A program made the position numbers and the translations under genes. The notes beneath the pieces were generated by a model. That model did no database searches, had not been told where the DNA came from, and saw nothing but the letters and a program-made list of their open reading frames with translations. DNA of 32,000 nt from Erysipelotrichaceae bacterium (GTDB lineage: Bacteria > Bacillota_I > Bacilli_A > Erysipelotrichales > Erysipelotrichaceae), in contig JAFRKI010000009.1 of the NCBI GenBank assembly GCA_017431825.1, positions 69,198 through 101,197 on the forward strand, written 5' to 3'. This document shows positions 2,709-24,232 of the stretch, one piece after another; the first letter of the stretch is position 1; the number at the start of each line of letters is the position of its first letter.

Positions 2709-2716
2709 GAATTACA

Positions 2717-4132: not shown

Positions 4133-5553
4133 ACCACGAAGTATTTATAAGTTATTCAAACAAGGACAAAAATGTGGCAGATGCGATAGTAAATCGCTTT
4201 GAATCCGGTGGTTTAAAGTGTTGGTATGCGCCTAGAGACATTAATCCTGGAAACGAATGGGCTGAATCTATTGTCAAGGCCATTAAAGCTTCAAAGACCA
4301 TGGTCCTTATTTTTACTGATTATTCTAATGCTTCAAAACAGGTAATTAGAGAAGTTGAAACTGCTATCAATAATGGAGTTGCCATTATTCCTTTCAAACT
4401 GACCGCCAGTAAGCCGTCAGGATCCATGGAATACTACCTTTCGACTTTACATTGGCTAGATGCCATGAACACCCCTCTAGACAATGCTATAAATGATTTG
4501 AAAGAAATGGCTCAAAATTTGAATAATTCAAAAAGTTTTGTTCAGAAAAAGAAGAAGAACAAAAAGACAATTATTATCACGTCAATACTGATTGTAGCTT
4601 TGATAGTTATCGGAATCTTCTTCATAATTTCAAATAAGAACAACAATAAAGAAAGCGATGTATTTATCCCTGTTGATTACTGTGAAAAGAATATAAACTA
4701 TTGTTTAAGTAAAAATGTTGTCTATTATTATGACAATGAAAACTTCTATTTATGCTATTTATATAATGGTGAAGACGGTATTTCATATCCATTACCTACC
4801 TCTATGGTTTTGGATATGAAAGAGAGTGATTTTTCTAAGGACGCAAATTTTGCAAATTATTTCGTTGCTCTTAATCCTTTCTTTAGTTGTGCGGCAACAA
4901 AAGATTACATTTTTATAGCTAACTCCAAAGGAGTTATTAGATATGAAGTATCTTCTGAAGAAGAAATAACCGTATATAATAAAGACGCTGAGAATTTATG
5001 TATTAATGGAGATTGGCTATTATTCATAGATTCAGATACAAAACAATTAATGAGAGTAAATTTCGATGGTTCGAAAATTGAAACTTTTAATGATGTTTAT
5101 GCAACGAGTTTCTTTATCCATGATAATAGAATTTATTTTATTTCCAATGATGAGGAATTATGCATATATGATAAAGGAGTAATAACAAAAGCCGACATAC
5201 AAGGCGGTTTCAGCCAAATGTGTTTTGACAATGATAATAGTATTTATGTATTTAATGGTTATAATAGGGCTTTTTACAGAATAGATCTAGATGGTAGCTT
5301 TAATCCTGAATTAGTCTATGTGTCCGAGAATACAATAGTTCCGTGGAATCTGTCCTTTTGGAATGGGAATCTTTATTATTCAGACATAGATTATAGAATC
5401 TGTGAACTCGACTTAGAAACTCAGCGGATAAATGATGTTCCAACAGAGCATAAGTATACAGTTATATTTAATATTATTGATGGACATATTTATGCCTTTA
5501 CCATGGATGAAATTTCAAAATATGAATATACAGAAATAATTGAATTACAGTAA
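4129..5553 (+). CDS. TIR domain - single TM - beta-propeller-like protein, paralog 2
   Basis: The architecture matches 2717..4132. Its ATG overlaps the upstream stop (ATGA at 4129-4132). By hand count the TIR part is about 90% identical to paralog 1 (12 differences in the first 125 aa). The C-terminal repeat domain is much more diverged, but both end in EIIELQ. Confidence 0.7.
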   Translation: MNHEVFISYSNKDKNVADAIVNRFESGGLKCWYAPRDINPGNEWAESIVKAIKASKTMVLIFTDYSNASKQVIREVETAINNGVAIIPFKLTASKPSGSMEYYLSTLHWLDAMNTPLDNAINDLKEMAQNLNNSKSFVQKKKKNKKTIIITSILIVALIVIGIFFIISNKNNNKESDVFIPVDYCEKNINYCLSKNVVYYYDNENFYLCYLYNGEDGISYPLPTSMVLDMKESDFSKDANFANYFVALNPFFSCAATKDYIFIANSKGVIRYEVSSEEEITVYNKDAENLCINGDWLLFIDSDTKQLMRVNFDGSKIETFNDVYATSFFIHDNRIYFISNDEELCIYDKGVITKADIQGGFSQMCFDNDNSIYVFNGYNRAFYRIDLDGSFNPELVYVSENTIVPWNLSFWNGNLYYSDIDYRICELDLETQRINDVPTEHKYTVIFNIIDGHIYAFTMDEISKYEYTEIIELQ

Positions 5554-5623
5554 ACTGTGTTTTAATAATTTTTATTTGTGAAAGTACTTATGTTTGATTG
5601 TTAATGAGAATAGGAAAGAGATT

Positions 5624-6349
5624 ATGACTACTATTATTGTTTTTTTAGCAGTATTGCCATCACTTGTATTGTTATTCTACATTTATAAAAGAGACTCAAT
5701 TAACAAGGAACCGAAGAGTCTTTTATTAAAATTGTTTGTCCTTGGTTGCTTATCGGTTATTCCTATAATAATAGCTGAATTTTTTGTTGTGGATTTAATG
5801 GATATTTATATTTTCGATAATACTTTATATAATCTTGTGGATGCTTTCGTTTGTGCTGCTTTGGTTGAAGAATCGATTAAATTCATCGTTACAAAATTGA
5901 CTATTTGGAAAAACAAAGCTTTTGATTCAACATTTGATGGAATGGTCTACTGTGCTTTTGTATCAATGGGCTTTGCCACGGTAGAAAACATAATATACTG
6001 CCTTTTCTTTGGCCTACCTACAGTTTTTTCTCGAATGTTTACTTCTATACCCGGCCATTTTTCTTTTGCTATTGTGATGGGCTTTTTCATATCAAAAGCC
6101 AAATATGAAGAGACCAAAGGCAAAAAACAAGAAATAAACACTAACAAAAGTAGAAAACTTCTAGCGTGTTCATTAATTATCCCTGTTATTCAACATGGAT
6201 TCTATGATTTTTGTTTGGTTCAAGATAGCAGAGTCCTGTTTTTTGTATTTATCCTAGTAGTTGTTTTCTCGTATTTAATAATTCTCATTATTGTGCATAG
6301 AGAACATAAAAGGGACACTTTGTTTTATGAAGACGATAGATTATTGTAA
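5624..6349 (+). CDS. PrsW-family intramembrane metalloprotease
   Basis: This is a polytopic membrane protein. Its N-terminus LPSLVLLFYIYKRDSINKEPKSLL, the motif VEESIKF (EExxK) and the motif QHGFYDF (HxxxD) are the PrsW signature motifs. I prefer the ATG at 5624, after AGGAAAGAG, over the TTG at 5594. Confidence 0.65.
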   Translation: MTTIIVFLAVLPSLVLLFYIYKRDSINKEPKSLLLKLFVLGCLSVIPIIIAEFFVVDLMDIYIFDNTLYNLVDAFVCAALVEESIKFIVTKLTIWKNKAFDSTFDGMVYCAFVSMGFATVENIIYCLFFGLPTVFSRMFTSIPGHFSFAIVMGFFISKAKYEETKGKKQEINTNKSRKLLACSLIIPVIQHGFYDFCLVQDSRVLFFVFILVVVFSYLIILIIVHREHKRDTLFYEDDRLL

Positions 6350-6845
6350 AAAGATTTTTTATGAAGCAAGTTGTTTTTATGAAGAGTCAAGTTCTACTTT
6401 TGAAAAGGTTTTAAAGTGTTCTCTATATTATGACGAAAATAACCAACCAGTTTTAGAACGTGATGCATTTTATTATTTCACATTTGTAATTGTTAATGGT
6501 GTTTTTGCTTGCGAATTATTTCTAAAGTCATTGATTTGTTACAAAACAAATAACGAGATTCAGGCAAATAGAACTCATTCATTAAAGAAACTAATCAATC
6601 TGTTAAGCAAAGATGATAGGGAAATAATAATGGAGACATTTGACAAGAACGAAATAGATGAAAGCAGTTTTAATTCCAAAATTGATGAAATTGATACAGC
6701 TTTCGTTGATTGGAGATATGTTTTTGAGGAAGGAAAGCACAGGTCGGTTGATTTAGTATTCTTGGATCATTTGCTTGGAATCTTAAGGTACATTGCCACT
6801 GAGGCATTTGAAAATGATAATAAAAAGCATTCAGATCCGGTCTGA
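6327..6845 (+). CDS. hypothetical all-alpha protein, tentatively HEPN-like
   Basis: The start is taken at the ATG at 6327 (MKTIDYCKK), overlapping the prsW-like stop by 23 nt. The motifs ACELFLKSLI ... NRTHSLKKLINLL ... FVDWRYVFE resemble HEPN-type helices. A canonical Rx4-6H spacing is not evident. Confidence 0.3.
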   Translation: MKTIDYCKKIFYEASCFYEESSSTFEKVLKCSLYYDENNQPVLERDAFYYFTFVIVNGVFACELFLKSLICYKTNNEIQANRTHSLKKLINLLSKDDREIIMETFDKNEIDESSFNSKIDEIDTAFVDWRYVFEEGKHRSVDLVFLDHLLGILRYIATEAFENDNKKHSDPV

Positions 6846-14755: not shown

Positions 14756-14779
14756 AAAGGTTCGTAAAGAACCTTTTTT
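14756..14779 (+). terminator. rho-independent terminator
   Basis: AAAGGTTC-gtaaa-GAACCTTT is followed by a T-run. Confidence 0.7.
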
Positions 14780-14795
14780 GGTAGAATGTAATTGT

Positions 14796-16448
14796 ATGAA
14801 AAAGAAGAAAAAGAACTTACTGACACTGTTCATCATCCTGCTGCTGCTGGTACTTGCTTCAGGCGCCTATCTCCTGTTCTTCATGGATGCCAAAGGCAAG
14901 ACGACGCCGATGTATCTGGCAAGCGACGATCCTCTCGCCACGGTCATCGACAAGGAAGGCAACGAGTTTACCTTTACCAGAGGAAAGGAAGTCGAAGCTT
15001 CCGCCAAAACGAAGAAGATAGATGAACAGGAATACGTCAGGATCTATATCGATGATGAAGAATACTATGTTTTAAGCGACTTTTTAGTTGAAGACAAGGA
15101 AGCTGCCGTACTGGAGAAAGATCTCTGGGTCTATCGGACCTGCAGCGTCTATGCGGGACCTGAAGGAAGCGGACTGAACGGTCTTATCTATAAAGGGGAA
15201 GGCATCACCGTAACTTCCCATTCGCCTTTGAAGGACGACGGTACCGTCGACCGCTACGGATATGACGGCGGCTATATCCTTAGCAAATATCTGACTGATG
15301 ATGAGGATTATGCCAAAACGCCTTATGAATCGCATTTCATCAACGATACGGAAGATCCTTACGGTGCCGGCAGTGCCGCCACTCTTGACTATTATCCTAA
15401 TGAGAAACCGTCATTTGAAGACAACGTCATGCCGGAAGTATGCAAGGCTCTTTACATCAATACCGAAGCCCTTTATGATATCGAAGATTATATCGATTAT
15501 GCGCTGACCACCAACGTCAACACTTTCGTTATCGATATCAGGGACTCCCATATCGTATCCTACGCTTCACCTATAATGGAGAAGTATTCCCCAAGCAGTT
15601 ATGCAGCCGGCCAGTTCACCAAGGCCGAGTTCACTGAAAAGGTAAAGAAGTGTAAGGATGCCGGTCTTTATGTGGTAGCCAGGATAACGGTCTTCAAGGA
15701 TTCCAACTTCATGAACGACCATCCGGAATATGCGATACTCGACAAGAACGACGACATGCGTCCGTTCCAGTACGGCAGTGCCTACTGGCCTAGCGGATAC
15801 TGCCGCAATGTCTGGGAATACAACGTCGAGCTTTCCAAAGAAGCCATCACCGACATCGGTTTCAATGAGATCCAGTATGACTATGTCAGATTCCCGGAAC
15901 AGATCGACTACTTTGCGGATGTGCTGAATGCGCTTGATCTGCAGAACACCTATGATGAGACCAGATCCGAAGCCATCCAGCGTTTCCTGATGTATGCGAC
16001 GGATGAAGTGCACAGCGTCGGCGGCTATGTATCGGCTGACGTCTTCGGCGAGACTTCGGAAGGCTACGTCTGTGCCTACGGCCAGTTCCTTCCGGCTATC
16101 TCCAACGTGGTAGATGTCGTATCGCCGATGCCTTATCCTGATCACTTCTCTCCTCATGCCTACGGCATTACGGAAGTCGTCTGGGAAGTTCCATACAAGC
16201 TGCTGATAAACTGGGGCAAGCATACCAGGGAATGCCAGGAAACGATACCGACACCGGCCAAGGTCAGGACCTATATCCAGGGCTACAATTCCATCTATGA
16301 ACCGTTCGTCTTCTATGACAACGCCAAGCTCGACGAACAGATCAGAGCTCTGATCGACAGCGGCATCTATGACGGTTACATCGTCTGGAACTCCGGCAGT
16401 TATATCGATACCTATCAGCTGTTCAGGGAAGCGCTGTCCAAGTATTAA
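14796..16448 (+). CDS. membrane-anchored putative glycoside hydrolase (DUF4015 / GHL-type TIM barrel)
   Basis: The ATG at 14796 gives MKKKKKNLLTLFIILLLLVLASG, a signal anchor. An SH3b-like stretch follows, then the catalytic-type region FVIDIRD...GFNEIQYDYVRFP typical of DUF4015. Confidence 0.6.
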   Translation: MKKKKKNLLTLFIILLLLVLASGAYLLFFMDAKGKTTPMYLASDDPLATVIDKEGNEFTFTRGKEVEASAKTKKIDEQEYVRIYIDDEEYYVLSDFLVEDKEAAVLEKDLWVYRTCSVYAGPEGSGLNGLIYKGEGITVTSHSPLKDDGTVDRYGYDGGYILSKYLTDDEDYAKTPYESHFINDTEDPYGAGSAATLDYYPNEKPSFEDNVMPEVCKALYINTEALYDIEDYIDYALTTNVNTFVIDIRDSHIVSYASPIMEKYSPSSYAAGQFTKAEFTEKVKKCKDAGLYVVARITVFKDSNFMNDHPEYAILDKNDDMRPFQYGSAYWPSGYCRNVWEYNVELSKEAITDIGFNEIQYDYVRFPEQIDYFADVLNALDLQNTYDETRSEAIQRFLMYATDEVHSVGGYVSADVFGETSEGYVCAYGQFLPAISNVVDVVSPMPYPDHFSPHAYGITEVVWEVPYKLLINWGKHTRECQETIPTPAKVRTYIQGYNSIYEPFVFYDNAKLDEQIRALIDSGIYDGYIVWNSGSYIDTYQLFREALSKY

Positions 16449-16474
16449 ATACATGTCCTTATAATAAAGAACAG

Positions 16475-16506
16475 CGGTCATCAGAAATGATGGCCGTTTT
16501 TATTTT
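16475..16506 (+). terminator. rho-independent terminator
   Basis: CGGTCATC-agaaat-GATGGCCG (one G-U pair) is followed by TTTTTATTTT. Confidence 0.65.
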
Positions 16507-16573
16507 CTGAAAAATAATTTAGGAAAATCATTAAAACCTGTCAATAAAGAAGTAGGGGAAAGAAAGGAGAAAC

Positions 16574-16738
16574 ATGAAATCGTTTTTTGAAGAATACGGC
16601 TTTGTGATGCTGGCGGCAGTCGTGGTGATCGCTCTTATCGCCATGACCTCCAACGTGGGAGAAGCCATCGAAGGCAACATCACCAGTCTTATCACCAGCT
16701 TTTCAACGAAGATCAGCAGCAGTTTGAACGGTGTTTAA
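16574..16738 (+). CDS. Flp-like type IVb pilin without a conventional leader (54 aa)
   Basis: This ORF is not in the ORF track because it is short. A GAAAGGAGA Shine-Dalgarno lies 4 nt before the ATG. The product MKSFFEEYGFVMLAAVVVIALIAMTSNVGEAIEGNITSLITSFSTKISSSLNGV aligns with mature Flp pilins (xxxxEYGLIAALIAV...LG..l...f..i) starting at residue 3. Confidence 0.6.
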   Translation: MKSFFEEYGFVMLAAVVVIALIAMTSNVGEAIEGNITSLITSFSTKISSSLNGV

Positions 16739-16760
16739 ACTCGTTAAGGAATAGCAGCGG

Positions 16761-17831
16761 ATGGGCATAGAGATAAAGGAAGAACTGTTCAAGGAACTGT
16801 GGCCGTTCATTCTGGATGAGAACGTGACCGACATCAAGTGGAACGGGACGTCACTCTGGATAACGGATCTAAGCAGGGGCCGGTATATGGTCAAGGACAT
16901 CAGTCTCTCGGAAGAATGGCTGAGGATATTCACCAACCTGATCGCCAATTCGGTCAATGAGAATTTCAACATATCCCGTCCCTCGCTCAAAGCGGAAACC
17001 AGAGAACTGCGAATTCAGGCTGTTCACGGCAGTGTATCGGAGGAAGGCAGGATCTGCCTGGCCATACGCAAGACCCCGAGCTGTGCCAGGCTCTTACACC
17101 AGGATCTCTTAAAGAGCGGTTATGCGGATGATTTCGTACTGAAACTCCTGCCTTGTCTCATGCGAGGACATCTTTCCGGTGTCATAACCGGTGATGTCGG
17201 AGCCGGCAAGACCGAACTCGAGAAATACCTGTGCTCTTTCATACCGGACTCTGATCCGATCATAACAGTTGAAGATACTCTGGAAATGAAGCTCAAGACG
17301 CTTTATCCGGAAAAGGATATTTACTCGCTAAAGATCAGTGACGCCTATTCCGCTGAACAGGCCATCAGGGATGCCCTGAGACTCAATACCAAATGGCTCA
17401 TCATCTCCGAATCAAGAGGAAGAGAGATCCTGAGGATCATCGAAGGTGCCTCATCAGGCTGTGTCGCTCTGACGTCCATCCATACGGAAAACGTCTGGGA
17501 AGTGCCTGACCGCATCCTCAACATGGCCGGAGACAATACGCGAAACAGTCTCGAGAATGATGTCTTTACCTTCTTTGACTATGCCATCAAGGTCAAGGCT
17601 GACTATTCGAACAGCGGTATCCGAAGAAGCATCGATCAGATATGCTTCTTCGACCGCAAGGATAAACAGAACTCCGTCACGGTCATCGTGAGGGACGGCA
17701 AGCCCGTCAAGGCCATGATACCGGAGAGGATCTACAGCAGATTTTATGAAAACCGGGAAAGGGAATTCATGGAAGCCTATTCAAAATTCTTAAGGAAGAA
17801 ACAGAGGAAAGAAAATGAAGGATTTGATTAA
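16761..17831 (+). CDS. type II/IV secretion-family ATPase (CpaF/TadA/VirB11-like)
   Basis: NVTDIKWNGTSLWITDLSRG and LAIRK are present. Walker A is GDVGAGKTE, the Asp box is ITVEDTLEM, Walker B is WLIISESRGRE, and the His box is LTSIHTEN. Confidence 0.8.
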   Translation: MGIEIKEELFKELWPFILDENVTDIKWNGTSLWITDLSRGRYMVKDISLSEEWLRIFTNLIANSVNENFNISRPSLKAETRELRIQAVHGSVSEEGRICLAIRKTPSCARLLHQDLLKSGYADDFVLKLLPCLMRGHLSGVITGDVGAGKTELEKYLCSFIPDSDPIITVEDTLEMKLKTLYPEKDIYSLKISDAYSAEQAIRDALRLNTKWLIISESRGREILRIIEGASSGCVALTSIHTENVWEVPDRILNMAGDNTRNSLENDVFTFFDYAIKVKADYSNSGIRRSIDQICFFDRKDKQNSVTVIVRDGKPVKAMIPERIYSRFYENREREFMEAYSKFLRKKQRKENEGFD

Positions 17832-19311
17832 AAGATACAGTATCAGAGAACTGAAGAACGATATCAGCAGATACGGCTTCAGTTATTCGACGAAAGACTT
17901 TCTGATCGAAATGATCGTTATCATCGGCATCGTGCTCTTTGTAGCCTATATCTCAAGACTGAGATACAGGTACATGCTGGCGCTGGTGCTGATCGCAATG
18001 GCCCTGATTCCCCCGCTGATCCAGGCATGGTTCCGTCAGAACTATAACATCCGCAGGTTTACGATGCTTTCGGACTATCTTTCCAACATCATTCCCATTT
18101 TCATGCAGAAGACCAAGATCCGTTATACGCTGGGTGAGCTCTTTGACATAACGAGCGGTCTCATGAAGGATACCATAGGCAAAGCTCTCGATTATCTCGA
18201 CAATACGGTCGATGACCCTGATCTCAACCGCAATGCCCTCAAGATCATCGAAGATGAATTCCCCAATTCCCGGGTAAAGTCGGCTCATAAGCTGATCCTG
18301 AGCATCGAAGCATCCAATTCCCTTAACTATGAAGACGTCTGCGAGAATCTCTATGACGATATCGAAAAGTGGATCAAAAGAGTCTATACCTTCCAGAAGG
18401 ATCTGAAGAACCGCAGGACCAAGCTGCTGATCCTGTGTCTGGCAACGCTGTTTATGAATTCCGTCTTTGTCTACTTCTATGTGGCCAATGACTATTTCAT
18501 CGGCTTTACCGAAAGCCCCGTGTATCAGATCTCCACACTGATCTTTATCGCTATCATCCTTGTCACAATAACCGTCATCATGATCAGATTAAACGGCGAA
18601 TGGCTGATAAACGACATGACCTACCGCAAGGATGAGGAACTCAGAAGGAAGTACATCCTCTATAAGGACGGCCAGCCCAAGGCCAGGATCGTTACGATAC
18701 TGGTCTGTCTGATCTGCGTAGCCGGAGGCGTGTATCTCGGGATAATAAACAGGATACCCGCATCCTTCCTGTGCTTTGGCATAGCGCTGATGGTCTTCTT
18801 CGATTCACCGGCCAGATACCATTCGGCCTATAAGAGCCTCAGCAAGAACCTGACCATCGAGTTTCCCGTCTGGCTCAGAGAGATATCCCTGGCCTTAAAC
18901 AGCTATACGGTACTCAATGCGATCGAAAACTCCCAGAACATAACTTCCTATCCTTTGAGAAAGGAACTCAGAAAATTCCTCGATGAAGCCAAAAAGGACC
19001 CGACATCCATCAGACCTTACAATGAATTCCTCAGTGAATTCGATCTGGAAGATGCCCGTTCATCAATGAAGGTCCTCTATGCGATCCAGAACATCGGCAA
19101 GGAGGACGTCAAGGTCAGAGTATCCAATCTGATACTGAGAAACCAGGAAATGCTGGACAAGGCCGAAAGCATCAGAAACAACGATTCCATCAGCGGCATC
19201 GAAGCCCTGGGCTATGTGCCGGTAGCCGTCTTCTCGGGACAGATGCTGATATCGATGTTTGCGATGTTTACCTACATGATGAACCTCGTATCAGGAGCAA
19301 TAAATCTATGA
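17815..19311 (+). CDS. polytopic platform protein with two T2SSF (TadB/TadC/GspF-like) repeats
   Basis: It overlaps the ATPase gene by 17 nt and has about 7-8 hydrophobic helices. Each of two cytoplasmic helical regions (aa about 85-200 and about 345-460) is followed by a TM segment, as in T2SSF repeats. Confidence 0.55.
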   Translation: MKDLIKRYSIRELKNDISRYGFSYSTKDFLIEMIVIIGIVLFVAYISRLRYRYMLALVLIAMALIPPLIQAWFRQNYNIRRFTMLSDYLSNIIPIFMQKTKIRYTLGELFDITSGLMKDTIGKALDYLDNTVDDPDLNRNALKIIEDEFPNSRVKSAHKLILSIEASNSLNYEDVCENLYDDIEKWIKRVYTFQKDLKNRRTKLLILCLATLFMNSVFVYFYVANDYFIGFTESPVYQISTLIFIAIILVTITVIMIRLNGEWLINDMTYRKDEELRRKYILYKDGQPKARIVTILVCLICVAGGVYLGIINRIPASFLCFGIALMVFFDSPARYHSAYKSLSKNLTIEFPVWLREISLALNSYTVLNAIENSQNITSYPLRKELRKFLDEAKKDPTSIRPYNEFLSEFDLEDARSSMKVLYAIQNIGKEDVKVRVSNLILRNQEMLDKAESIRNNDSISGIEALGYVPVAVFSGQMLISMFAMFTYMMNLVSGAINL

Positions 19312-19733
19312 GGATAATGGTAAGGATGATGGGACTTTCCATCATCGGTTTCTGTACCTGCCTGATGCTGATGCACATCTTCGATCTCAACGTCCGCCTC
19401 GATGAGCTCAACAAGATCTCGTCACTGGCGATGTCCAATACTCAGATCGTGGTCCAGGAAAACATCGAAGACAGACTCTATGGCACAGACAATGCCCGCT
19501 TAAGGATAGACAGCAATGACAAATATATCAGCCTCTACAAGGAAAACCTCAGTAAGCTCATAAGCACCGACAGCACCTATGAAGTGAGCGATTACCTGGC
19601 TGATCATGAGCGGGGATTATTATATGTGAAGGTCGACTGCAGCTATAAGACCTTGAACGGCAACACGAAGACTTTAAGCAGAAAACTGCTGAACATAATC
19701 GATGTCAATGAAAACTATGAAGAGAATGCTTAA
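19308..19733 (+). CDS. pilin-like / minor pilin candidate (141 aa), function unknown
   Basis: It has an ATGA overlap with the platform gene. The N-terminus MRIMVRMMGLSIIGFCTCLMLM shares the M-[KR]-x-hydrophobic pattern and single N-terminal TM of the other small proteins in the operon. Confidence 0.35.
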   Translation: MRIMVRMMGLSIIGFCTCLMLMHIFDLNVRLDELNKISSLAMSNTQIVVQENIEDRLYGTDNARLRIDSNDKYISLYKENLSKLISTDSTYEVSDYLADHERGLLYVKVDCSYKTLNGNTKTLSRKLLNIIDVNENYEENA

Positions 19734-21069
19734 ATGCCTGCTGGTAACAGCAGCGATTATCATCCAGTGTGCAGGCACCGCCATGGCCGAAGGGGAACCG
19801 CCTGACGGCTACAGCGAATGGAACACGGAAAGCAGCGGCGATCCGAATGAGATATCCGCCATCCAGTACGGCAGACAGCTGCCAAAGGAATGGTCGGAGT
19901 GGTCGATCGAAGTTCCCGAATCTCCCTATCAGAAAGAAGGAGAGGAGCTGGAAAGACACTATGCCTATGACGGCGTCAGCTATTTCTGGAACAATGCCCG
20001 GGCCAAGACGCTGTTCGAGTGGAACTTTCCTTCGAAGTCAAGGATCGTCTACTTCTATGCGGATGTCGATACCTATGTCGACAGGACCTACACCAACTAT
20101 TCCGGTCCGCCCTTACAGCTGTACTGCGATGGCAGACAGGTAGCCAGTACCGGACGCCACAACCATCTGAACAACTGGAATCCCGATATCGACTGCGAGT
20201 GCAGTGTCCTCAAGCTTACGATGTCAGCCGATACCGGCAACGGACGCAATGCGACCTGCATCGTCGGTACCTGGGCGACCACATATCTGAAGACCTATTC
20301 CTATGTCATAAGCTGGGAAGAACCGGGAGACTGGCGCTTCGATGAAGCCTATCCGCATCTCTACGGTGAGGAAAGCCAGATACCGGCCGAAAGGACCGTC
20401 TATTCAAGTCCTATCGTCTATCATATCAGCTACGACTTTGACGGCGGGGAAGCCATAGGTGAAGCGACTGATTCCTATACTGTCCTTGATGAAGTTGATC
20501 TGCCCGGAGCCCATAAGGCAGGGTATGATTTTATCGGCTGGTATGAAGGAGATACACTGATCGAAAGGATCGAAAAAGGTACGTTCAGGAACATAAGCCT
20601 CATAGCCGTATATGACCGTCACAAGCCGAGCATCTTCACCGGTTATGCTTTCTTTGATGAAGATGACCGGCACATCGGGATCAGTGATCTGCTGGATATC
20701 ATCAAGGCATCCGCAAGCGATGAGGTGGACGGTGACATCACCGGCAGGATAAAGGTCGAAAGCATCACCTATGAAAAGAGCGGCACGACCGTCAGCAGGC
20801 CTGCATATCTGGACGTCGGCACCAGTCAGAGCGTCATCATCAGGCTCTCCGTCACCAACAGCGGCGGCAAGAAGGCCGAGATCGAAAGACGCTACTACAT
20901 CTTAGGCAAAGGCACAGACATCGAAAGAGACGATGACGTCAGGGTCTATTCCCGTTTCATTTCTGAAGATTTCAGAGAGACCCTCAGTCCGGGTTCGGTC
21001 TGGCGCAATTATGACTACATGGAAGTATTGGAAGCAGCTTATATGAAAGCTAGAAAGGATCAAGGATGA
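19702..21069 (+). CDS. secreted protein with a Listeria-Bacteroides repeat (Flg_new) and an Ig-like (DUF5011-like) domain
   Basis: The Sec signal peptide ends in AGTAMA|EG. YHISYDFDGGEAIG...HKAGYDFIGWYEGDTLI is a Flg_new-type repeat. ASASDEVDGDITGRIKVESITYEKSG...SVTNSGGKKAE is DUF5011/Ig-like. Several in-frame ATGs (19702, 19708, 19717, 19726) leave the start uncertain. Confidence 0.6.
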   Translation: MSMKTMKRMLKCLLVTAAIIIQCAGTAMAEGEPPDGYSEWNTESSGDPNEISAIQYGRQLPKEWSEWSIEVPESPYQKEGEELERHYAYDGVSYFWNNARAKTLFEWNFPSKSRIVYFYADVDTYVDRTYTNYSGPPLQLYCDGRQVASTGRHNHLNNWNPDIDCECSVLKLTMSADTGNGRNATCIVGTWATTYLKTYSYVISWEEPGDWRFDEAYPHLYGEESQIPAERTVYSSPIVYHISYDFDGGEAIGEATDSYTVLDEVDLPGAHKAGYDFIGWYEGDTLIERIEKGTFRNISLIAVYDRHKPSIFTGYAFFDEDDRHIGISDLLDIIKASASDEVDGDITGRIKVESITYEKSGTTVSRPAYLDVGTSQSVIIRLSVTNSGGKKAEIERRYYILGKGTDIERDDDVRVYSRFISEDFRETLSPGSVWRNYDYMEVLEAAYMKARKDQG

Positions 21070-21212
21070 GAAGACTGTTTGCCCATTACGGATTACTGAT
21101 GCTGGCGCTTGTCGGAGGCTTTACGGCCATCACGATATTCATCAGCGTCTTCCTGAATGAAGAAAACGCCATCGGCAATATCCTGGGACTGTGGCTGTCT
21201 CATCTGATGTAA
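21066..21212 (+). CDS. small Flp-like pilin paralog (48 aa)
   Basis: This ORF is not in the ORF track. It has an ATGA overlap with the upstream stop. The product is MRRLFAHYGLLMLALVGGFTAITIFISVFLNEENAIGNILGLWLSHLM. Confidence 0.5.
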   Translation: MRRLFAHYGLLMLALVGGFTAITIFISVFLNEENAIGNILGLWLSHLM

Positions 21213-21213
21213 T

Positions 21214-21645
21214 ATGAAAAATCTGTTTGAAGAATACGGGGAATCGATCATTTCCCTGATCTGTTCACTGGTGATCGTTACCATGTTCATATCGGTCTTC
21301 CTTATCGAAGTGCTGGGGACCAATGCCGGCATGATAGGCGACAATACGGTCGAAGCCAGGCCGGCAGCTCCTGAAGATGAGATCAGGATCAGAGCCTTCA
21401 GTGTCAGGGACATCCTGATAACCCAGGGCGAAGAGATAAACTGGAACGGAAGGATCGAAGCGACCAACAACCGCGGCGATTACAGCGGCAGCGACGAGGA
21501 CATCTCTTCCTATGTCAGCCTTTACGGCGATGTCGATACTTCAAGTCCGGGCGTTAAGGAAGCGACCTATGTCCTCAGATACAACGGCGAGACCAGATTC
21601 GCCAAAGCCAGGGTGATCGTTACGCCAAGGGAGGAAGAACTCTAA
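21214..21645 (+). CDS. pilin-like N-terminus fused to an Ig-like (DUF5011-like) domain; minor pilin / tip adhesin candidate
   Basis: The N-terminus MKNLFEEYGESIISLICSLVIVTMFISVF has the same motif as the 16574 pilin. The C-terminus SSYVSLYGDVDTSSPGVKEATYVLRYNGETRFAKARVIVT is Ig-like. Confidence 0.5.
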   Translation: MKNLFEEYGESIISLICSLVIVTMFISVFLIEVLGTNAGMIGDNTVEARPAAPEDEIRIRAFSVRDILITQGEEINWNGRIEATNNRGDYSGSDEDISSYVSLYGDVDTSSPGVKEATYVLRYNGETRFAKARVIVTPREEEL

Positions 21646-21971
21646 TGAAAAGCATGGTCGAACATATGACGACGATGATCATCATGATGGTGCTGATCTT
21701 CGTCTTCACCATCATCATCACTACCGGTCTGCAGATAGTAAATGCCAGACTCATCCATACCAATGCCATCGAAAGGATGCAGTCGTCATTCTACAACGTA
21801 CCGGTAAGCGATCTCAATGCCGAACTTGACGAAGGCTGGTACTTTGAAGTGAACGAGCTTTCCAGCGTCAAAACCCGCAAGGATTATGAAGTTACGCTCA
21901 ACTACATCATCAGGATGCCGCTGTTCAATGAAGGCGGCGTATACGGACGGATCGTGGGGTATGCCCGATGA
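21645..21971 (+). CDS. pilin-like / minor pilin candidate (108 aa)
   Basis: Its ATG (21645-21647) overlaps the upstream TAA stop (21643-21645) by 1 nt. The N-terminus is MKSMVEHMTTMIIMMVLIFVFTIIITTG, a single N-terminal TM. Confidence 0.35.
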   Translation: MKSMVEHMTTMIIMMVLIFVFTIIITTGLQIVNARLIHTNAIERMQSSFYNVPVSDLNAELDEGWYFEVNELSSVKTRKDYEVTLNYIIRMPLFNEGGVYGRIVGYAR

Positions 21972-22075
21972 GAGAACTGATCGGAGAATACCTGGAGACC
22001 ATCCTGGAACTGTGCATGGTGATCATGTTTACGGAGATGATATTCGTGATAATGAAAATGATTTTTGCGATTTAA
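21968..22075 (+). CDS. very small pilin-like protein (35 aa)
   Basis: This ORF is not in the ORF track. It has an ATGA overlap with the upstream stop. The product is MRELIGEYLETILELCMVIMFTEMIFVIMKMIFAI, with E-Y at positions 7-8 as in the other pilin-like genes. Confidence 0.35.
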   Translation: MRELIGEYLETILELCMVIMFTEMIFVIMKMIFAI

Positions 22076-22092
22076 CGTTTTACCTGTATAAT
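22065..22092 (+). promoter_or_regulatory. candidate promoter for the metG leader
   Basis: TTGCGA (22065-22070), a 16-nt spacer, then a consensus TATAAT (22087-22092) preceded by TG. Confidence 0.4.
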
Positions 22093-22104
22093 GATAGTTG
22101 GTAA

Positions 22105-22297
22105 CGAAGGATAGAGTAGCTGATGAAAGCTCATAGAGAGTCCTTGGGCGGTGGAAAAGGACAGCGGCAGCCAGCGAACATGGATCCGGAACCTCTGTCA
22201 CGATAGGTAGTGCCAGACGTGTACTCGCGTTAAGAGCTCAAGTTAAAAGTAAGGTGGTACCGCGCAGCTGCGCCCTTGTGTCACCTTTTTATTTTTT
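22105..22297 (+). promoter_or_regulatory. T-box riboswitch leader, Met specifier
   Basis: The AG-bulge AGAGAG lies at 22135-22140 and a distal-loop-like GGTGGAAA follows. The specifier-loop context is GCGAAC-ATG-G, with ATG at 22180-22182. The conserved T-box sequence AAGGTGGTACCGCG lies at about 22251-22264. A GC-rich hairpin plus TTTTTATTTTTT terminator follows, directly upstream of metG. Confidence 0.8.
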
Positions 22298-22309: not shown

Positions 22310-24232
22310 ATGGAAAACAAAGGGAAATACTACATAACGACCGCTATCGCCTACGCCAGCGGCAAGCCGCATATCGGCAATACCTATGAGATCATCATGG
22401 CTGACAGCATCGCCCGTTATAAGAAGCTGACCGGTTATGACGTCTACTTCCAGACCGGAACCGATGAACACGGCCAGAAGATCGAAGAGAAAGCCAAGGC
22501 TGCCGGCATGACACCGAAGGAGTTCGTCGATGTCCAGGCTGCCGAGATCAAGCGCATCTTCGATCTGATGAATACCCGCTATGACCGTTTCATCCGTACG
22601 ACCGACGACGACCATGAAGCCCAGGTCAAGAAGATCTTCAAGAAACTCTACGATCAGGGCGACATTTACAAGAGCGAATATGAAGGCTGGTACTGTACGC
22701 CTTGTGAATCATTCTGGACCGATTCCCAGCTGGTGGACGGCAAGTGTCCGGACTGCGGCAGGGAAGTCCATAAGGAAAAGGAAGAATCCTATTTCTTCAA
22801 GCTTTCGAAATACCAGAAACAGCTGGAAGAATACATCGAAAGCCATCCGGAATTCATCCAGCCGGAATCAAGAAAGAACGAGATGATCAACAACTTCCTC
22901 AAGCCCGGCTTACAGGACCTGTGCGTATCCCGTACTTCCTTCAAGTGGGGCATTCCGGTAGATTTCGATCCGAAGCATGTCGTCTATGTCTGGATCGATG
23001 CCTTGAGCAACTACATCACCGGACTCGGTTATGATGTCGACGGCAATCACGGCGAACTCTATAAGAAGTACTGGCCGGCTGATCTGCATCTTATCGGTAA
23101 GGACATCATCAGATTCCATACCCTGTACTGGCCGATCATGCTGCTGGCCCTGAACGTACCATTGCCTAAACAGGTATTCGGACATCCGTGGATGCTGGTA
23201 GGCGAAGACAAGATCTCCAAATCCAGAGGCAACGCCATCTATGCCGATGACCTCGTGCATTTCTTCGGCGTCGATGCCGTCAGATATTACGTCCTTCATG
23301 AAATGCCTTTTGCCCAGGACGGAACCATCACCTGGGAACTCATCATCGAAAGGATCAACTCCGACCTGGCCAACGTCTATGGCAACCTCGTAAACAGGAC
23401 CGTCGCCATGACCAACAAGTACTTCGGCGGCCAGCTCAAGAGACCGGAACGTTTCGCGGATGAAGATAAGGAGTTCAGAGATTTCATCACGGAAAGCGTC
23501 AAGGCCGTTGATGAAAAGATGGATCAGTTAAGAGTCGGTGATGCCATGGAAGCCATCATGGAACTCTTCAGACGCTGCAACAAATACATCGATGAGACCG
23601 CTCCTTGGACCTTAGGCAAGGACGAAACAAAGAAGGAAAGACTCAACGAAGTCCTCTACAATCTCCTTGAAGGCATCAGGATCGGCTCCGTACTGATGGA
23701 ACCGTTCATGCCGGAAACCAGTCAGAAGGTCTATGAGCAGATCGGCACCGGCAAGGTGGCTTATGATACCTTAAGCGAATTCGGTGCCTATGAATGCGGC
23801 AAGGTAGCCGAAAAGCCGGAAGTCCTCTTTGCGAGACTCGATTCCGAAAAGGTCATGGAAGAAGTCCATGAATACCTGAAAAAGGACGAAGGAGTAAAGA
23901 TCGAACATCTCCCGGAGATCACCATAGATGATTTCGCCAAAGTCGAGCTTACGGTCGGTCAGGTCCTTGAATCCAAGAAACACGAAAAGGCCGACAAGCT
24001 GCTGGTATCCCGGATCGATATCGGCAACGGCGAGGTAAGACAGATCGTATCGGGCATCGCCGATATCATCAAGCCTGAAGATTTCGTCGGAAAGAAGGTC
24101 GTAGTCGTCACCAATCTAAAGCCGGCTGTCCTTAGAGGCGTCGAATCACAGGGCATGATACTCTGTGCCGAAAACGGCGATCAAGTGGAGATCATAAGTT
24201 CCACATTGCCGACAGGCAGCAAATTAAGATAA
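22310..24232 (+). CDS. metG: methionine--tRNA ligase with a C-terminal tRNA-binding (Trbp111/EMAP-like) domain
   Basis: The HIGH motif is in ASGKPHIGNTYE, the zinc knuckle is CTPCE...CPDCG, and KISKSRG is the KMSKS variant. The C-terminus is DFAKVELTVGQVLESKKHEKADKLLVSRIDIG. Confidence 0.95.
   Translation: MENKGKYYITTAIAYASGKPHIGNTYEIIMADSIARYKKLTGYDVYFQTGTDEHGQKIEEKAKAAGMTPKEFVDVQAAEIKRIFDLMNTRYDRFIRTTDDDHEAQVKKIFKKLYDQGDIYKSEYEGWYCTPCESFWTDSQLVDGKCPDCGREVHKEKEESYFFKLSKYQKQLEEYIESHPEFIQPESRKNEMINNFLKPGLQDLCVSRTSFKWGIPVDFDPKHVVYVWIDALSNYITGLGYDVDGNHGELYKKYWPADLHLIGKDIIRFHTLYWPIMLLALNVPLPKQVFGHPWMLVGEDKISKSRGNAIYADDLVHFFGVDAVRYYVLHEMPFAQDGTITWELIIERINSDLANVYGNLVNRTVAMTNKYFGGQLKRPERFADEDKEFRDFITESVKAVDEKMDQLRVGDAMEAIMELFRRCNKYIDETAPWTLGKDETKKERLNEVLYNLLEGIRIGSVLMEPFMPETSQKVYEQIGTGKVAYDTLSEFGAYECGKVAEKPEVLFARLDSEKVMEEVHEYLKKDEGVKIEHLPEITIDDFAKVELTVGQVLESKKHEKADKLLVSRIDIGNGEVRQIVSGIADIIKPEDFVGKKVVVVTNLKPAVLRGVESQGMILCAENGDQVEIISSTLPTGSKLR

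Follow-up and report, generated by a model that had tools for sequence, protein, structure and literature searches.

The machines that assemble type IV filaments have, to the best of our knowledge, always been thought to require a leader-processing enzyme, and we know of no studied type IV filament that does not need leader cleavage. According to a published phylogeny, the Tad systems among them derive from archaeal systems (PMC6668835). Relatives within the Erysipelotrichales carry comG, and Bulleidia also contains a classical tad locus of 13 genes with tadV first, a locus reported to be absent from Solobacterium (PMC12786226). On plasmids of the pXO2/pAW63 group, an ATPase has been termed 'VirB11' in the literature (PMC1196294; PMC9673590).

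Here, we describe a nine-gene operon within a 32,000-nucleotide stretch of DNA from a gut Erysipelotrichaceae bacterium (contig JAFRKI010000009.1; hereafter, the window). With moderate confidence, we favor the reading that it encodes a minimal, chromosomally fixed Tad/Flp-like ('type IVc-like') filament machine that is probably independent of a prepilin peptidase; both filament formation and function are what we infer from sequence.

Organization and boundaries of the operon

ORF calling revealed a run of + strand ORFs without a break from 16574 to 22075. An earlier note on this DNA had described the same run and junctions but counted ten genes, whereas there are nine (g1-g9). Of the eight junctions, taken from 5' to 3', the first is a 22-nt gap, the second an overlap of 17 nt, and the fourth an overlap of 32 nt; the sixth is a gap and the seventh an overlap of 1 nt each, and the third, fifth, and eighth are ATGA. 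The nine genes are translationally coupled and form a single operon. The features, in window positions, are as follows:

16473..16508, + strand: intrinsic-terminator-like hairpin and T-run (11-pair stem with 5 GC pairs, tail TTTATTTTCT)
16574..16738, + strand: g1, 54-aa leaderless Flp-like major pilin candidate (MKSFFEEYG, then a hydrophobic helix)
16761..17831, + strand: g2, 356-aa hexameric-type secretion ATPase of the T2SSE family (Pfam T2SSE, 7.6e-19)
17815..19311, + strand: g3, 498-aa polytopic membrane protein (hhalign, AF2/Foldseek, sub-threshold T2SSF)
19308..19733, + strand: g4, 141-aa bitopic protein with an N-terminal membrane helix and a ~110-aa outside domain (sequence, conservation)
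19702..21069, + strand: g5, 455-aa protein secreted via Sec, carrying a single Listeria-Bacteroides repeat domain (Pfam Flg_new, 9.4e-7, residues 240-302)
21066..21212, + strand: g6, 48-aa leaderless pilin-like protein, MRRLFAHYG... (N-terminal motif; coding signature)
21214..21645, + strand: g7, 143-aa minor-pilin-like protein, MKNLFEEYG..., then a ~100-aa outside domain (N-terminal motif)
21645..21971, + strand: g8, 108-aa minor-pilin-like protein, MKSMVEHM... (N-terminus; conservation; plasmid counterparts)
21968..22075, + strand: g9, 35-aa leaderless pilin-like protein, MRELIGEYL... (N-terminal motif; coding signature)
22065..22280, + strand: 3' boundary, metG promoter and T-box leader (promoter prediction; RF00230)

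The hairpin closes the upstream DUF4015 gene and delimits the operon on its 5' side; from there to g1, the search for a sigma-70 consensus promoter on the + strand gave no match. At the 3' end, a sigma-70-like promoter (22065-22092), whose -35 box lies within the 3' end of g9, and a T-box leader (22095-22280; RF00230, 95.7 bits against a cut-off of 93) precede the 640-aa metG ORF (22310-24232), and no terminator was found from g9 to the T-box. The upstream terminator and downstream metG promoter and T-box proposed earlier were borne out; the original observation thus stands in part, with the gene count and some protein details requiring correction.

The GC content of the operon equals that of its flanks. 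In the NCBI record, every gene except that of the ATPase is given as 'hypothetical protein' and g9 is not called, in agreement with the earlier suggestion that these proteins may be too divergent for annotation. In every small ORF, identity by codon position follows the order 2 > 1 > 3, a coding signature. The run of ORFs is far beyond chance expectation, and the preservation of the nine-ORF order in ~17 genomes, together with this signature, indicates that the genes are real.

The secretion ATPase and its plasmid relatives

The NCBI name for g2 is 'type II/IV secretion system ATPase subunit'. NCBIfam comparison pointed to the VirB11 (3e-23) and TadA-type (4e-19) models, both far below the model cut-offs, and the best PDB match was 2oap, afGspE (Archaeoglobus GspE; 1.6e-13), followed by VirB11 and then CpaF. 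The FlaI model scored g2 at only 21.8-23.6 bits, and the ComGA model gave 37 bits against a cut-off of 300. In a neighbor-joining tree lacking archaeal, ComGA, and monoderm TadA references, g2 fell outside both the proteobacterial VirB11 pair and the proteobacterial CpaF pair and far from PilB/GspE/PilT, with the E. coli PilB/GspE-type ATPases in the other half of the tree. By these comparisons, g2 appears to belong to the VirB11/CpaF/archaeal half of the T2SSE family, not to the PilB/GspE/ComGA half. Its boxes had earlier been described as intact; this holds for Walker A, Walker B, and the Asp box, but not for the His box, whose first His is replaced by Cys in the g2 family.

The nearest ATPases outside the family, at ~30% identity, reside on conjugative plasmids of Listeria, B. 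velezensis, and the pXO2/pAW63 group, and form a joint clade with g2 (90% bootstrap). The pXO2/pAW63/Listeria plasmid modules are unrecognized Tad-like modules and the nearest relatives outside the family.

The platform protein

No Pfam or NCBIfam model matched g3, nor was there a profile match to the PilC-type protein HofC. All platform and pilin matches to named families fall under curated thresholds; among relatives of g3, the commonest such family was T2SSF (18 of 57), always at ~residues 95-221. Alignment of the N-half with the C-half by hhalign uncovered an internal duplication (probability 82%, E 1e-6). The halves also align to two separate TadB/TadC-like membrane proteins that adjoin CpaF/VirB11 ATPases on plasmids of Listeria and Bacillus and on pXO1; the probabilities were 86-92% for three proteins and 34% and 75% for two others. 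The pXO1 relatives of one plasmid platform protein carry the NCBI name 'type II secretion system F family'. When residues 70-205 were modeled with AF2 (pLDDT 92) and compared with 350,542 PDB chains, the top Foldseek matches were the cytoplasmic domains of EpsF and PilC (TM 0.52-0.64, probability 0.75-0.99, E 0.16-1.3), with a further resemblance to the SpoIIIAB fold (6bs9, TM 0.55-0.60). In these fold comparisons, E-values of 0.16-0.44 stand against probabilities reaching 0.99 and TM above 0.5. By this remote evidence, g3 is predicted to consist of two GspF/PilC/TadB-C-type platform domains fused to each other. The polytopic platform named in the earlier note is thus upheld by a GspF/PilC-type cytoplasmic domain at the fold level and by the duplication.

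Leaderless pilin-like proteins without processing genes nearby

Across all orthologues, g1, g7, and g9 share an invariant M-[KR]-x-x-x-x-E-Y start, from which g6 and g8 deviate only slightly. This start reproduces the Flp motif "G/XXXXEY" at the right spacing, with Met-Lys/Arg instead of the leader and cleavage glycine; the -1-equivalent residue is Lys, Arg, or Asn in every orthologue and never Gly, Ala, or Ser. M1, E7, Y8, and G9 of g1 are invariant (21 unique orthologues), as are E3, E7, and Y8 of g9 (14 unique orthologues). An AAGGAG ribosome-binding site precedes g1, whose reading frame meets a stop 6 codons upstream and offers no other start. In-frame stops also lie 4 codons upstream of g6 and 2 codons upstream of g7; a longer leader is therefore excluded for these three.

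Sub-threshold matches of g1 were to Flp_Fap, opening at profile position 12, past the leader, as well as to Flp1_like and DUF4244; such Flp-type families are the top sub-threshold matches and together the three most frequent. Alignment with Caulobacter PilA (8u1k) pairs E7 of g1 with mature residue 5 (E = 0.8). A weak Ig-like match was obtained for g7 (E 0.011). The most widely conserved small component is g8, which extends to distant loci and plasmids (plasmid counterparts, 118-120 aa), and a near-identical class of g9-like proteins is abundant in human-gut contigs, adjoining g2/g3 relatives.

Neither the window nor the flanks examined contained a prepilin peptidase, TadZ, or TadE-domain protein, and none turned up in locus L028 of a complete genome or, by a phmmer search of low sensitivity, in 1.4 Mb of related loci. 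Lacking a class III leader, the -1 glycine, and all three of these proteins, the operon therefore departs from canonical Tad systems in several defining respects. This is its most unusual feature, and one that was overlooked: the earlier note had recognized the 54-aa Flp-like pilin, in line with its EY motif, but not that the leader is entirely absent. The broader proposal, which placed the operon in the type IV filament superfamily as a compact and divergent member, is supported by the T2SSE ATPase, the GspF/PilC-type platform, and the Flp EY motif. We know of no precedent for a two-residue N-terminal extension with Lys in a filament core.

The accessory proteins g4 and g5

Five further small proteins had been credited with pilin-like N-termini; those of 48, 143, 108, and 35 aa have them, whereas the 141-aa g4 has a membrane helix without the EY motif and only a weak TadF match (E 0.017). 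It is kept throughout the family, lying directly 5' of the ATPase gene in distant loci and plasmids. The 455-aa g5 carries a Sec-type signal and a single N-terminal hydrophobic segment, as expected from its earlier description as a Sec-secreted repeat protein; however, self-BLAST detected no internal repeats, and there is a single Flg_new domain. No C-terminal anchor was found. Full-length g5 occurs only in the Solobacterium-like clade, and the protein is a candidate tip adhesin or cargo.

These properties raise an alternative that we regard as unlikely: a short pseudopilus or piston, acting in T2SS-like secretion or in adhesin display, that pushes or presents g5 through the thick cell wall. 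The g5 gene sits inside the operon, coupled on both sides, its product has a signal peptide and no wall or membrane anchor, and the 35- and 48-aa pilin-like proteins fit a core-only stalk. Nevertheless, g5 is absent or only partly matched in distant chromosomal loci and plasmid modules that keep the ATPase, platform, g4, g8, and pilin, and is therefore accessory rather than the machine's reason. Moreover, tandem arrays of 2-4 major-pilin genes among metagenome relatives suggest that bulk subunit output matters.

Distribution and a possible link to DNA transfer

The nine ORFs occur in the same order in ~17 independent Solobacterium-like genomes; in all syntenic genomes they are flanked by the DUF4015 gene and metG, the latter lying downstream in 16 syntenic loci. 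A distant version lies between ychF and dapA in the complete genome of Eubacterium sp. F2 (NZ_CP176393). The platform family comprises 850 clusters at 50% identity. When metagenomes were scanned for the start motif, 122 complete ORFs were obtained, 88 of them no longer than 70 aa, and g2 or g3 relatives were present in 35 of the 62 start-motif loci of at least 6 kb. The leaderless pilin start is coupled to the g2/g3 machine and recurs in gut metagenomes.

A DNA-transfer accessory appears quite improbable, whether as a fiber for DNA uptake or as a mating-pair or contact apparatus left over from Gram-positive conjugative plasmids and since domesticated. Its appeal lies in the plasmid ATPases, which are the closest outside relatives and belong to modules of the same gene order, the pXO2 module adjoining a TrbC/VirB2-family gene. 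The earlier note had held that clustering with conjugative T4SS or Com systems would speak against a type IV filament; strictly, no such clustering was seen in the tree or in the ComGA score, and neither VirB4, VirD4, nor a relaxase lies nearby, although the nearest outside relatives are nonetheless on conjugative plasmids. ComEA and ComEC are likewise absent from the window. The DUF4015/metG and ychF/dapA settings, moreover, point to vertical inheritance and not to a mobile element, the GC content matches the flanks, and no relatives were found in viral contigs, nor any meaningful match in PHROG.

Proposed mechanism and remaining alternatives

In the favored reading, a peptidase-independent filament machine, the small proteins would insert N-in/C-out, with Met-Lys/Arg alone as the cytoplasmic 'leader'. 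Residue 3 would be equivalent to +1 of a mature Flp pilin, placing Glu at +5 and Tyr at +6, and cleavage would be neither needed nor possible. The ATPase would turn or lift the platform, pulling g1 out of the membrane and stacking it into a thin helical fiber of near-pure alpha-helices that crosses the cell wall. As minor pilins, g6-g9 may prime and cap the fiber, and g5, at the tip or alongside, could serve as its adhesive element, as do PilY1-type proteins. The machine would likely act in adhesion or aggregation within the gut or rumen.

We give very little weight to a canonical Tad pilus whose pilins are cut by ComC, TadV, or another peptidase with its gene at some other site in the genome. 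Different systems sometimes share a peptidase, and MSH loci without their own prepilin peptidase have been described (PMC6668835). Here, however, there is nothing to cleave, as the ORFs cannot extend upstream and the -1-equivalent residue is unsuited in every orthologue; TadZ and TadE-domain proteins are also missing. It is just as improbable that the small proteins are membrane subunits of another ATPase-driven complex, resembling Flp merely as short hydrophobic helices: every pilin-family match is sub-threshold and short transmembrane peptides easily match spuriously (holin, ABC2, and PsbH matches appear), but the E-Y pair recurs in Flp register, exactly four residues past M-[KR], in five paralogues, Flp-type families jointly lead the matches, and the ATPase and platform partners are of the kind that polymerizes pilins in every known case.

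Comparison with known systems

The SpoIIIA sporulation channel (SpoIIIAA ATPase and GspF-like SpoIIIAB) resembles the operon in the fold of the g3 cytoplasmic domain; however, gene content and sizes differ, no SpoIIIA family matches were obtained, and the operon contains pilin-like genes. The ComG competence pseudopilus of Firmicutes is likewise encoded by a monoderm type IV filament operon in which genes for several small pilin-like proteins accompany those for an ATPase and a platform, but the ATPase gene comes first there and the pilin leaders are cleaved by ComC. Archaeal type IV pili (afGspE/FlaI-type) supply the best solved-structure match to g2, 2oap, whereas their pilins bear class III leaders that PibD, FlaK, or EppA remove, and the present hosts are Firmicutes.

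Closer likeness is found in the Tad/Flp systems (type IVc; A. actinomycetemcomitans tad, Caulobacter Cpa, Bifidobacterium breve Tad, and Bulleidia extructa tad). Common to both are the order of pilin first, TadA-like ATPase, and TadB/TadC-type platform; a very small (~50 aa), nearly all-helix major subunit with Glu-Tyr at +5/+6 of the mature equivalent; extra pilin-like proteins; and, as in monoderm versions, no secretin. Unlike them, the operon is without a leader, Gly -1, the TadV peptidase, TadZ/CpaE, and TadE-domain (PF07811) pseudopilins; its TadB and TadC are fused (498 aa) and miss the T2SSF model, and its ATPase, at 356 aa, is short and branches outside the proteobacterial CpaF pair. 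It is a different system from the Bulleidia tad locus. In the pXO1 Tad-like locus, too, a TadB-like protein comes after a CpaF/VirB11-family ATPase and matches the N-half of g3 (probability 86%, E 5e-6), but this locus retains the canonical form: its Flp pilins have a normal leader ending in Gly, and a TadZ-like ParA/MinD ATPase is present.

The 'VirB11' plasmid modules (pAW63/pXO2/pBT9727, Listeria pLM5578-type, and B. velezensis) hold the closest ATPase relatives outside the family, as a sister clade. They differ in having a platform split into two proteins of ~250-280 aa, a longer ATPase (412-443 aa), and small proteins without the EEYG start, and they lie inside transfer regions with adhesins and a VirB2-family gene, whereas the nine-gene operon is chromosomal, in a housekeeping context. 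Their proteins, too, are annotated as hypothetical, and they share the core order of the distant chromosomal loci: a g4-like gene, ATPase, platform, a g8-like gene, and tiny pilin-like genes.

Organization and conservation of the operon

ORF calling in the window returned an uninterrupted run of nine plus-strand ORFs at 16574-22075, designated g1 to g9. The earlier note had spoken of ten genes, a miscount, as its own component list sums to nine; all eight gene junctions it described are exactly reproduced by the ORF coordinates, and the upstream terminator, the downstream metG promoter and the T-box it claimed were likewise located.

Features of the operon and its boundaries (positions in window numbering)
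16473-16508, terminator-like hairpin with T-run, upstream operon boundary
16574-16738, plus strand, g1, 54 aa, Flp-like pilin candidate
16761-17831, plus strand, g2, 356 aa, T2SSE-family ATPase
17815-19311, plus strand, g3, 498 aa, putative platform protein
19308-19733, plus strand, g4, 141 aa, bitopic protein
19702-21069, plus strand, g5, 455 aa, putatively secreted protein
21066-21212, plus strand, g6, 48 aa, pilin-like protein
21214-21645, plus strand, g7, 143 aa, pilin-like protein
21645-21971, plus strand, g8, 108 aa, pilin-like protein
21968-22075, plus strand, g9, 35 aa, pilin-like protein
22065-22092, sigma-70-like promoter of metG, -35 box within the final codons of g9
22095-22280, T-box leader (95.7 bits), followed by metG

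With this -35 box inside g9 and no terminator separating g9 from the T-box, transcription of the operon would be expected to continue into the methionine-sensing metG T-box leader. The gene order is well preserved: metG lies downstream of the operon in 16 syntenic loci, and a genome scan seeded with the g3 family detected 31 loci, with all nine genes matched in identical order and followed by metG in 14 loci (among L001-L014). Three loci truncated by a contig end (L003, L015 and L017) show the same order for the genes present, and even the 35-aa g9 was matched in its place in syntenic loci. A coding signature, with identity at codon position 2 > 1 > 3, was found in six of six small ORFs (for g9, 0.77, 0.59 and 0.46 at positions 2, 1 and 3, respectively). 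Identical proteins occur in an Erysipelotrichaceae bacterium metagenome-assembled genome at NCBI (MBR0461924-31, locus tags IJJ00_04340-04375), where the ATPase alone is named, as 'type II/IV secretion system ATPase subunit'; the others are listed as 'hypothetical protein' and g9 is unannotated.

The neighbouring genes are housekeeping in nature (peptidases, dUTPase, a DUF4015 protein, metG and murT/gatD), and the GC content of the operon is uniform with its flanks, on which ground a horizontal island was rejected. A phage origin was also rejected, the PHROG matches not being meaningful and viral contigs containing no relatives. Operon-metG synteny was also seen on contigs L013, L001, L012, L003, L006 and L014, binned as Methanomethylophilaceae archaeon, Paratractidigestivibacter, Agathobacter, Acutalibacteraceae and Oscillospiraceae, with the DUF4015 gene directly upstream in L001 and L012; these odd names likely reflect mis-binning, not transfer.

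The DUF4015 neighbour (14778-16448) encodes 556 aa, with a membrane segment at the N-terminus and a putative glycosyl-hydrolase domain, and is separated from the operon by the terminator. It directly precedes the operon in L001, L002, L004 and L012, the four syntenic loci whose flank extends that far, and in L014 a DUF4015 match lies ~8 kb upstream. The protein might have a part in remodelling wall or polysaccharide. Elsewhere in the window, a low-GC island (1095-6845; GC 0.29-0.35 versus ~0.48 elsewhere) encodes two tandem TIR-domain proteins (2618-4132 and 4129-5553; TIR_2 5e-21), a 537-aa ORF without assignment (1095-2708), a PrsW-family protease (5594-6349) and a 184-aa ORF, and looks like an acquired defence island.

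The ATPase

The g2 product matches Pfam T2SSE at 7.6e-19, above the cut-off, and thus provides the ATPase that characterizes the superfamily of type IV filaments (TFF). Its motifs had been described as intact; this holds for Walker A (GDVGAGKT), the Asp box and Walker B (LIISESRG), but Cys takes the place of the first His in the His box. At this site (window 17461-17481; g2 residues ~234-240), the window protein reads SGCV, with Cys also in Eubacterium sp. F2 (L028, TGCS), Leu in L021, and Gly-His in all reference ATPases. Every NCBIfam score falls far under its equivalog cut-off: VirB11 82 bits (cut-off 250), TadA-type TIGR03819 69 (373), ComGA 37 (300), PilT 25, FlaI 24, GspE 19 and PilB 17. 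Among solved structures, archaeal afGspE comes closest (2oap, 1.6e-13), ahead of VirB11 proteins and, after these, CpaF; one relative at 59% identity carries the NCBI name TadA.

In a neighbour-joining tree (338 columns, 100 bootstraps), the window ATPase family is monophyletic (100%), with the ATPases of Listeria, B. velezensis and pXO2 plasmids as its sister group (joint clade 90%). The family lies outside both the proteobacterial VirB11 pair and the CpaF pair, and GspE, HofB and YggR are far from it (100%). As the reference set comprised no archaeal, ComGA or monoderm TadA sequences, the tree tells what g2 is not, rather than its exact origin. By its place outside the VirB11 pair and by the VirB11 and ComGA scores, g2 does not, in the strict sense, group with conjugative type IV secretion or Com ATPases, a grouping that the earlier note had set against a filament, although its nearest outside relatives belong to Gram-positive conjugative plasmids. 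Some g2 relatives (P0377-P0390 among the extended entries) are 575-585 aa long, with an extra C-terminal part.

The platform protein

The g3 family is large, comprising 850 clusters at 50% identity with E <= 1e-3, 357 of them with E <= 1e-30; all Pfam and NCBIfam models nonetheless score below threshold on g3, and its profiles retrieve only designed helical repeats among PDB sequences. At the level of remote homology, g3 is concluded to be a fused TadB-TadC-type platform, because four independent lines converge. First, of the Pfam families matched below threshold, T2SSF recurs most often (18 of 57 diverse members, best E 5e-4), the match always falling on residues ~95-221 and spanning nearly all of the 125-position model. 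Second, g3 is internally duplicated: its N-half and C-half profiles align (hhalign probability 82%, E 1e-6), and the hydrophobic segments repeat in step. Third, plasmid genes for CpaF/VirB11-family ATPases are followed by genes for two separate membrane proteins of ~250-280 aa, the first aligning to the g3 N-half (Listeria 270 aa, probability 92%, E 5e-7; pXO1 TadB-like, 86%, E 5e-6) and the second to the C-half (B. velezensis 243 aa, 87%, E 4e-6). Relatives of the pXO1 type are named 'type II secretion system F family protein' by NCBI, and a homology search from the pXO1 TadB-like protein returned 8 close relatives only.

Fourth, when an AF2 model of the cytoplasmic domain (residues 70-205, pLDDT 92) was compared with 350,542 PDB chains, the four best matches were the cytoplasmic domains of EpsF (2vmb, 2vma) and PilC (2whn), with TM 0.52-0.64, rmsd 3.6-4.2 Å, probability 0.75-0.99 and E 0.16-1.3, the E-values alone not being significant. 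SpoIIIAB, known for its GspF-like fold, was also among the matches. The full-length model (pLDDT 86.9) gave only spurious long-helix matches in the PDB (E >= 0.5), and in hhalign the g3 profile showed no alignment to E. coli HofC (PilC-type) or two Rhizobium tad-locus proteins. The TFF platform (GspF/PilC/TadB-C, T2SSF domains) is thus represented by g3 only at the remote-homology and fold level, and the two platform paralogues of Tad/Flp systems, TadB and TadC, are represented as a fusion. Several platform relatives (P0119, P0120, P0197, P0229 and P0089) reach 720-820 aa through an N-terminal addition of 220-320 residues; no Pfam domain was found in the extra 220-320-aa extensions of some g3 and g2 relatives.

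Leaderless pilin-like subunits

Common to g1, g6, g7 and g9 and, more loosely, g8 is the start M-[KR]-x-[LFI]-F-x-E-Y-[GA], which leads into a hydrophobic helix and is kept in every orthologue. Of the five further small proteins previously credited with pilin-like N-termini, g4 falls away, having a membrane helix without the motif. In g1, E7, Y8 and G9 are invariant across 21 unique sequences, distant Eubacterium/Emergencia-type loci included (MKSFLEEYG, MNTFLQEYG).

The Flp processing motif is G/XXXXEY. Canonical Sphingobium Flp reads ...EKG/LTAVEYAV..., whereas in g1-type proteins XXXXEY comes directly after M-K; the EY stands at the Flp-correct spacing counted from residue 3, with the Gly and the leader missing. 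Consistent with this register, Pfam Flp_Fap scores 15.7 bits on g1 (cut-off 32.2) and covers only model positions 12-46, past the leader, and the structure of the Caulobacter Tad pilin (8u1k), matched weakly, has its mature residue 5 aligned with g1 residue 7. The sub-threshold families that lead over 16 g1 relatives are Flp_Fap, Flp1_like and DUF4244, with Flp-type families in 11 member-matches. The best hhalign match of the pilin profile to individual Flp sequences was pXO1 Flp (E 5.7e-4, probability 30%), which is uninformative at such short length.

Upstream of g1, g6 and g7 the reading frame is closed by a stop at 6, 4 and 2 codons, respectively, without an intervening start codon, and g1 has an AAGGAG ribosome-binding site. 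With translation starting at M-K, these stops indicate that the Flp-like subunits are made without a class III leader and without a small -1 residue; indeed, every orthologue has K, R or N at the place equivalent to -1. The class III signal peptide of the TFF superfamily (short basic leader, Gly/Ala/Ser at -1) is accordingly absent from all five pilin-like ORFs, and g1 retains only the EY of the motif that defines a Tad/Flp pilin. From sequence, a prepilin peptidase has no predicted substrate among the pilin-like proteins of the window. To our knowledge, removal of the leader by an A24 aspartyl peptidase counts as a universal and defining step in every type IV filament, be it pili, T2SS, Com, archaella or Tad; literature searches on leaderless or peptidase-independent pilins found nothing relevant.

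A scan of metagenome contigs for DNA encoding M-K-x-F-[FL]-[EQ]-E-Y-G yielded at least 120 loci. Among the matches listed, 88 of 122 complete ORFs are of at most 70 aa, nearly all consisting of the motif plus one helix; 35 of the 62 loci that span 6 kb or more encode relatives of g2 or g3 as well; in some loci there are 2-4 leaderless pilin genes in tandem (L131, L129, L055; also the L082-L084 group); and many contigs come from human gut. Since the start recurs beside g2/g3 relatives, it is a family trait coupled to the ATPase and platform, not a one-genome oddity. The same matches include proteins of 223-265 aa with an MK.F[FL][EQ]EYG start and a helix (L050, L068, L100, L110 and others), which look like pilins with large outside domains.

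Accessory proteins and alternative readings

The N-terminal membrane helix protein g4 is conserved throughout, has its gene directly upstream of that for the ATPase both in distant loci and on plasmids, and has a weak TadF match (E 0.017). For g5, described earlier as a Sec-secreted repeat protein, one signal-peptide-like segment and one Flg_new domain were found; internal repeats are absent, as is an anchor. A short pseudopilus presenting g5 is the foremost rival to a surface filament; such a secreted partner would suit it, whereas the restriction of full-length g5 to the Solobacterium-like clade speaks against it. At the locus in the complete Eubacterium sp. F2 genome, between ychF and dapA, there are only g4-like, ATPase, platform, 210-aa protein and pilin genes.

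An accessory role in DNA transfer would fit the plasmid sister group of the ATPase. The components of conjugative type IV secretion (VirB4, VirD4, a relaxase and a VirB11 equivalog) are absent from the window, where the other genes are housekeeping, and neither a secretin nor a ComE gene was found there. A canonical Tad pilus served by a distant peptidase is a further, less likely reading, against which the missing leaders speak. The window contains no A24 peptidase, TadZ/CpaE or TadE-domain protein, Pfam matches for the Tad components TadV, TadZ/CpaE and TadE/TadF with TadE domain being absent from both operon and window; nor does the L028 locus contain an A24 peptidase. Across 1.4 Mb of related loci, neither a Rhizobium TadV nor a pXO1 TadZ-like query found a match by single-sequence phmmer, a search of low sensitivity. 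A non-filament complex, to which the largely sub-threshold profile matches would lend themselves, sits poorly with the T2SSE ATPase and Flp-like starts.

Proposed assembly and significance

A compact, divergent type IV filament member overlooked by annotation, as the earlier note had proposed, is supported by the naming of the ATPase alone in the NCBI record, the remote platform homology of g3 and the Flp-like starts. The parts list and its conservation are observed; from these we infer the steps of assembly. Subunits would insert N-in/C-out, leaving just Met-Lys on the cytoplasmic side as a minimal end, and a g2 hexamer would drive g3 so that g1 is extracted and stacked into a thin helical fibre. 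The g6-g9 proteins may prime or cap this fibre, with g4 as a conserved assembly partner and g5 as a tip or cargo protein specific to the clade. Speculatively, Lys2 or an amino terminus left unprocessed could contribute a positive charge to pair with the conserved Glu on the adjacent subunit, as the newly exposed N-terminus does in pilins that are processed. The role is most likely adhesion or aggregation.

More broadly, we tentatively suggest, as a possibility we rate somewhat short of an even chance, that these loci form a large lineage, as yet unnamed, of machines of the type IV filament kind that gut and rumen Firmicutes run without prepilin leader and peptidase, whose subunits are translated 'mature' with Met-Lys replacing the processed N-terminus, and whose plasmid sisters (the pXO2/pAW63/Listeria 'VirB11' modules) are the missing pilus-like contact apparatus of Gram-positive conjugation. 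Two points stand out: a processing step thought universal in the superfamily has apparently been lost, and the unrecognised family is large. If true, widespread ready-to-assemble subunits would show leader cleavage to be dispensable and would offer a natural experiment on the roles of the free N-terminus and Glu5 in assembly. Detection tools relying on T2SSF, Flp and peptidase profiles very probably miss the g3-type family, which leaves surface filaments of gut Firmicutes incompletely counted. With nine small genes and no accessory enzymes, the operon would also be an attractive minimal model for reconstituting filament assembly.

Comparison with known systems

In a tblastn search of plasmids, the ATPase matched most closely 'CpaF/VirB11 family' genes on plasmids of the Listeria pLM5578 type (30% identity) and of B. 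velezensis (32%), then those of pXO2 and pXO1. The modules of Listeria pLM5578 (L032 8374-12587), the B. velezensis plasmid (L034 5403-9262) and pXO2 (L040 4334-8220) share the order of distant chromosomal loci, namely g4-like, ATPase, two half-platforms, g8-like and tiny hydrophobic proteins; that of pXO2 adjoins a TrbC/VirB2-family gene. In the pAW63/pXO2 literature, the ATPase is termed VirB11 and its neighbours conserved hypotheticals (PMC1196294; PMC9673590). Judged by gene content and order, these blocks look like unrecognised Tad-like modules within Gram-positive conjugation regions, and 'VirB11 plus conserved hypotheticals' on pXO2/pAW63-type and Listeria plasmids would be reinterpreted as such.

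The pXO1 locus (L033 4845-9432) is more canonically Tad-like, with a TadZ-like ParA/MinD ATPase, a CpaF/VirB11 ATPase, a TadB-like protein and two leadered Flp-like pilins; an unlisted 248-aa ORF (L033 8004-8750) may be TadC. The TadZ-like ATPase and the Flp pilins, whose normal leaders end in Gly, set pXO1 apart from the window operon. The tad locus of Bulleidia extructa, a classical one with 13 genes, is a different system from the window operon; its proteins other than PilA1 were reported to lack homologues in Solobacterium (PMC12786226). A ComG pseudopilus was rejected on gene content, the ComGA score (37 against 300 bits), the missing profile match of g3 to HofC and the leaderless pilins, and a SpoIIIA-like channel on gene content and model scores. 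Although it is without the canonical leader with Gly at -1, TadV, TadZ and TadE domain, the window operon would appear to work like a Tad/Flp system.
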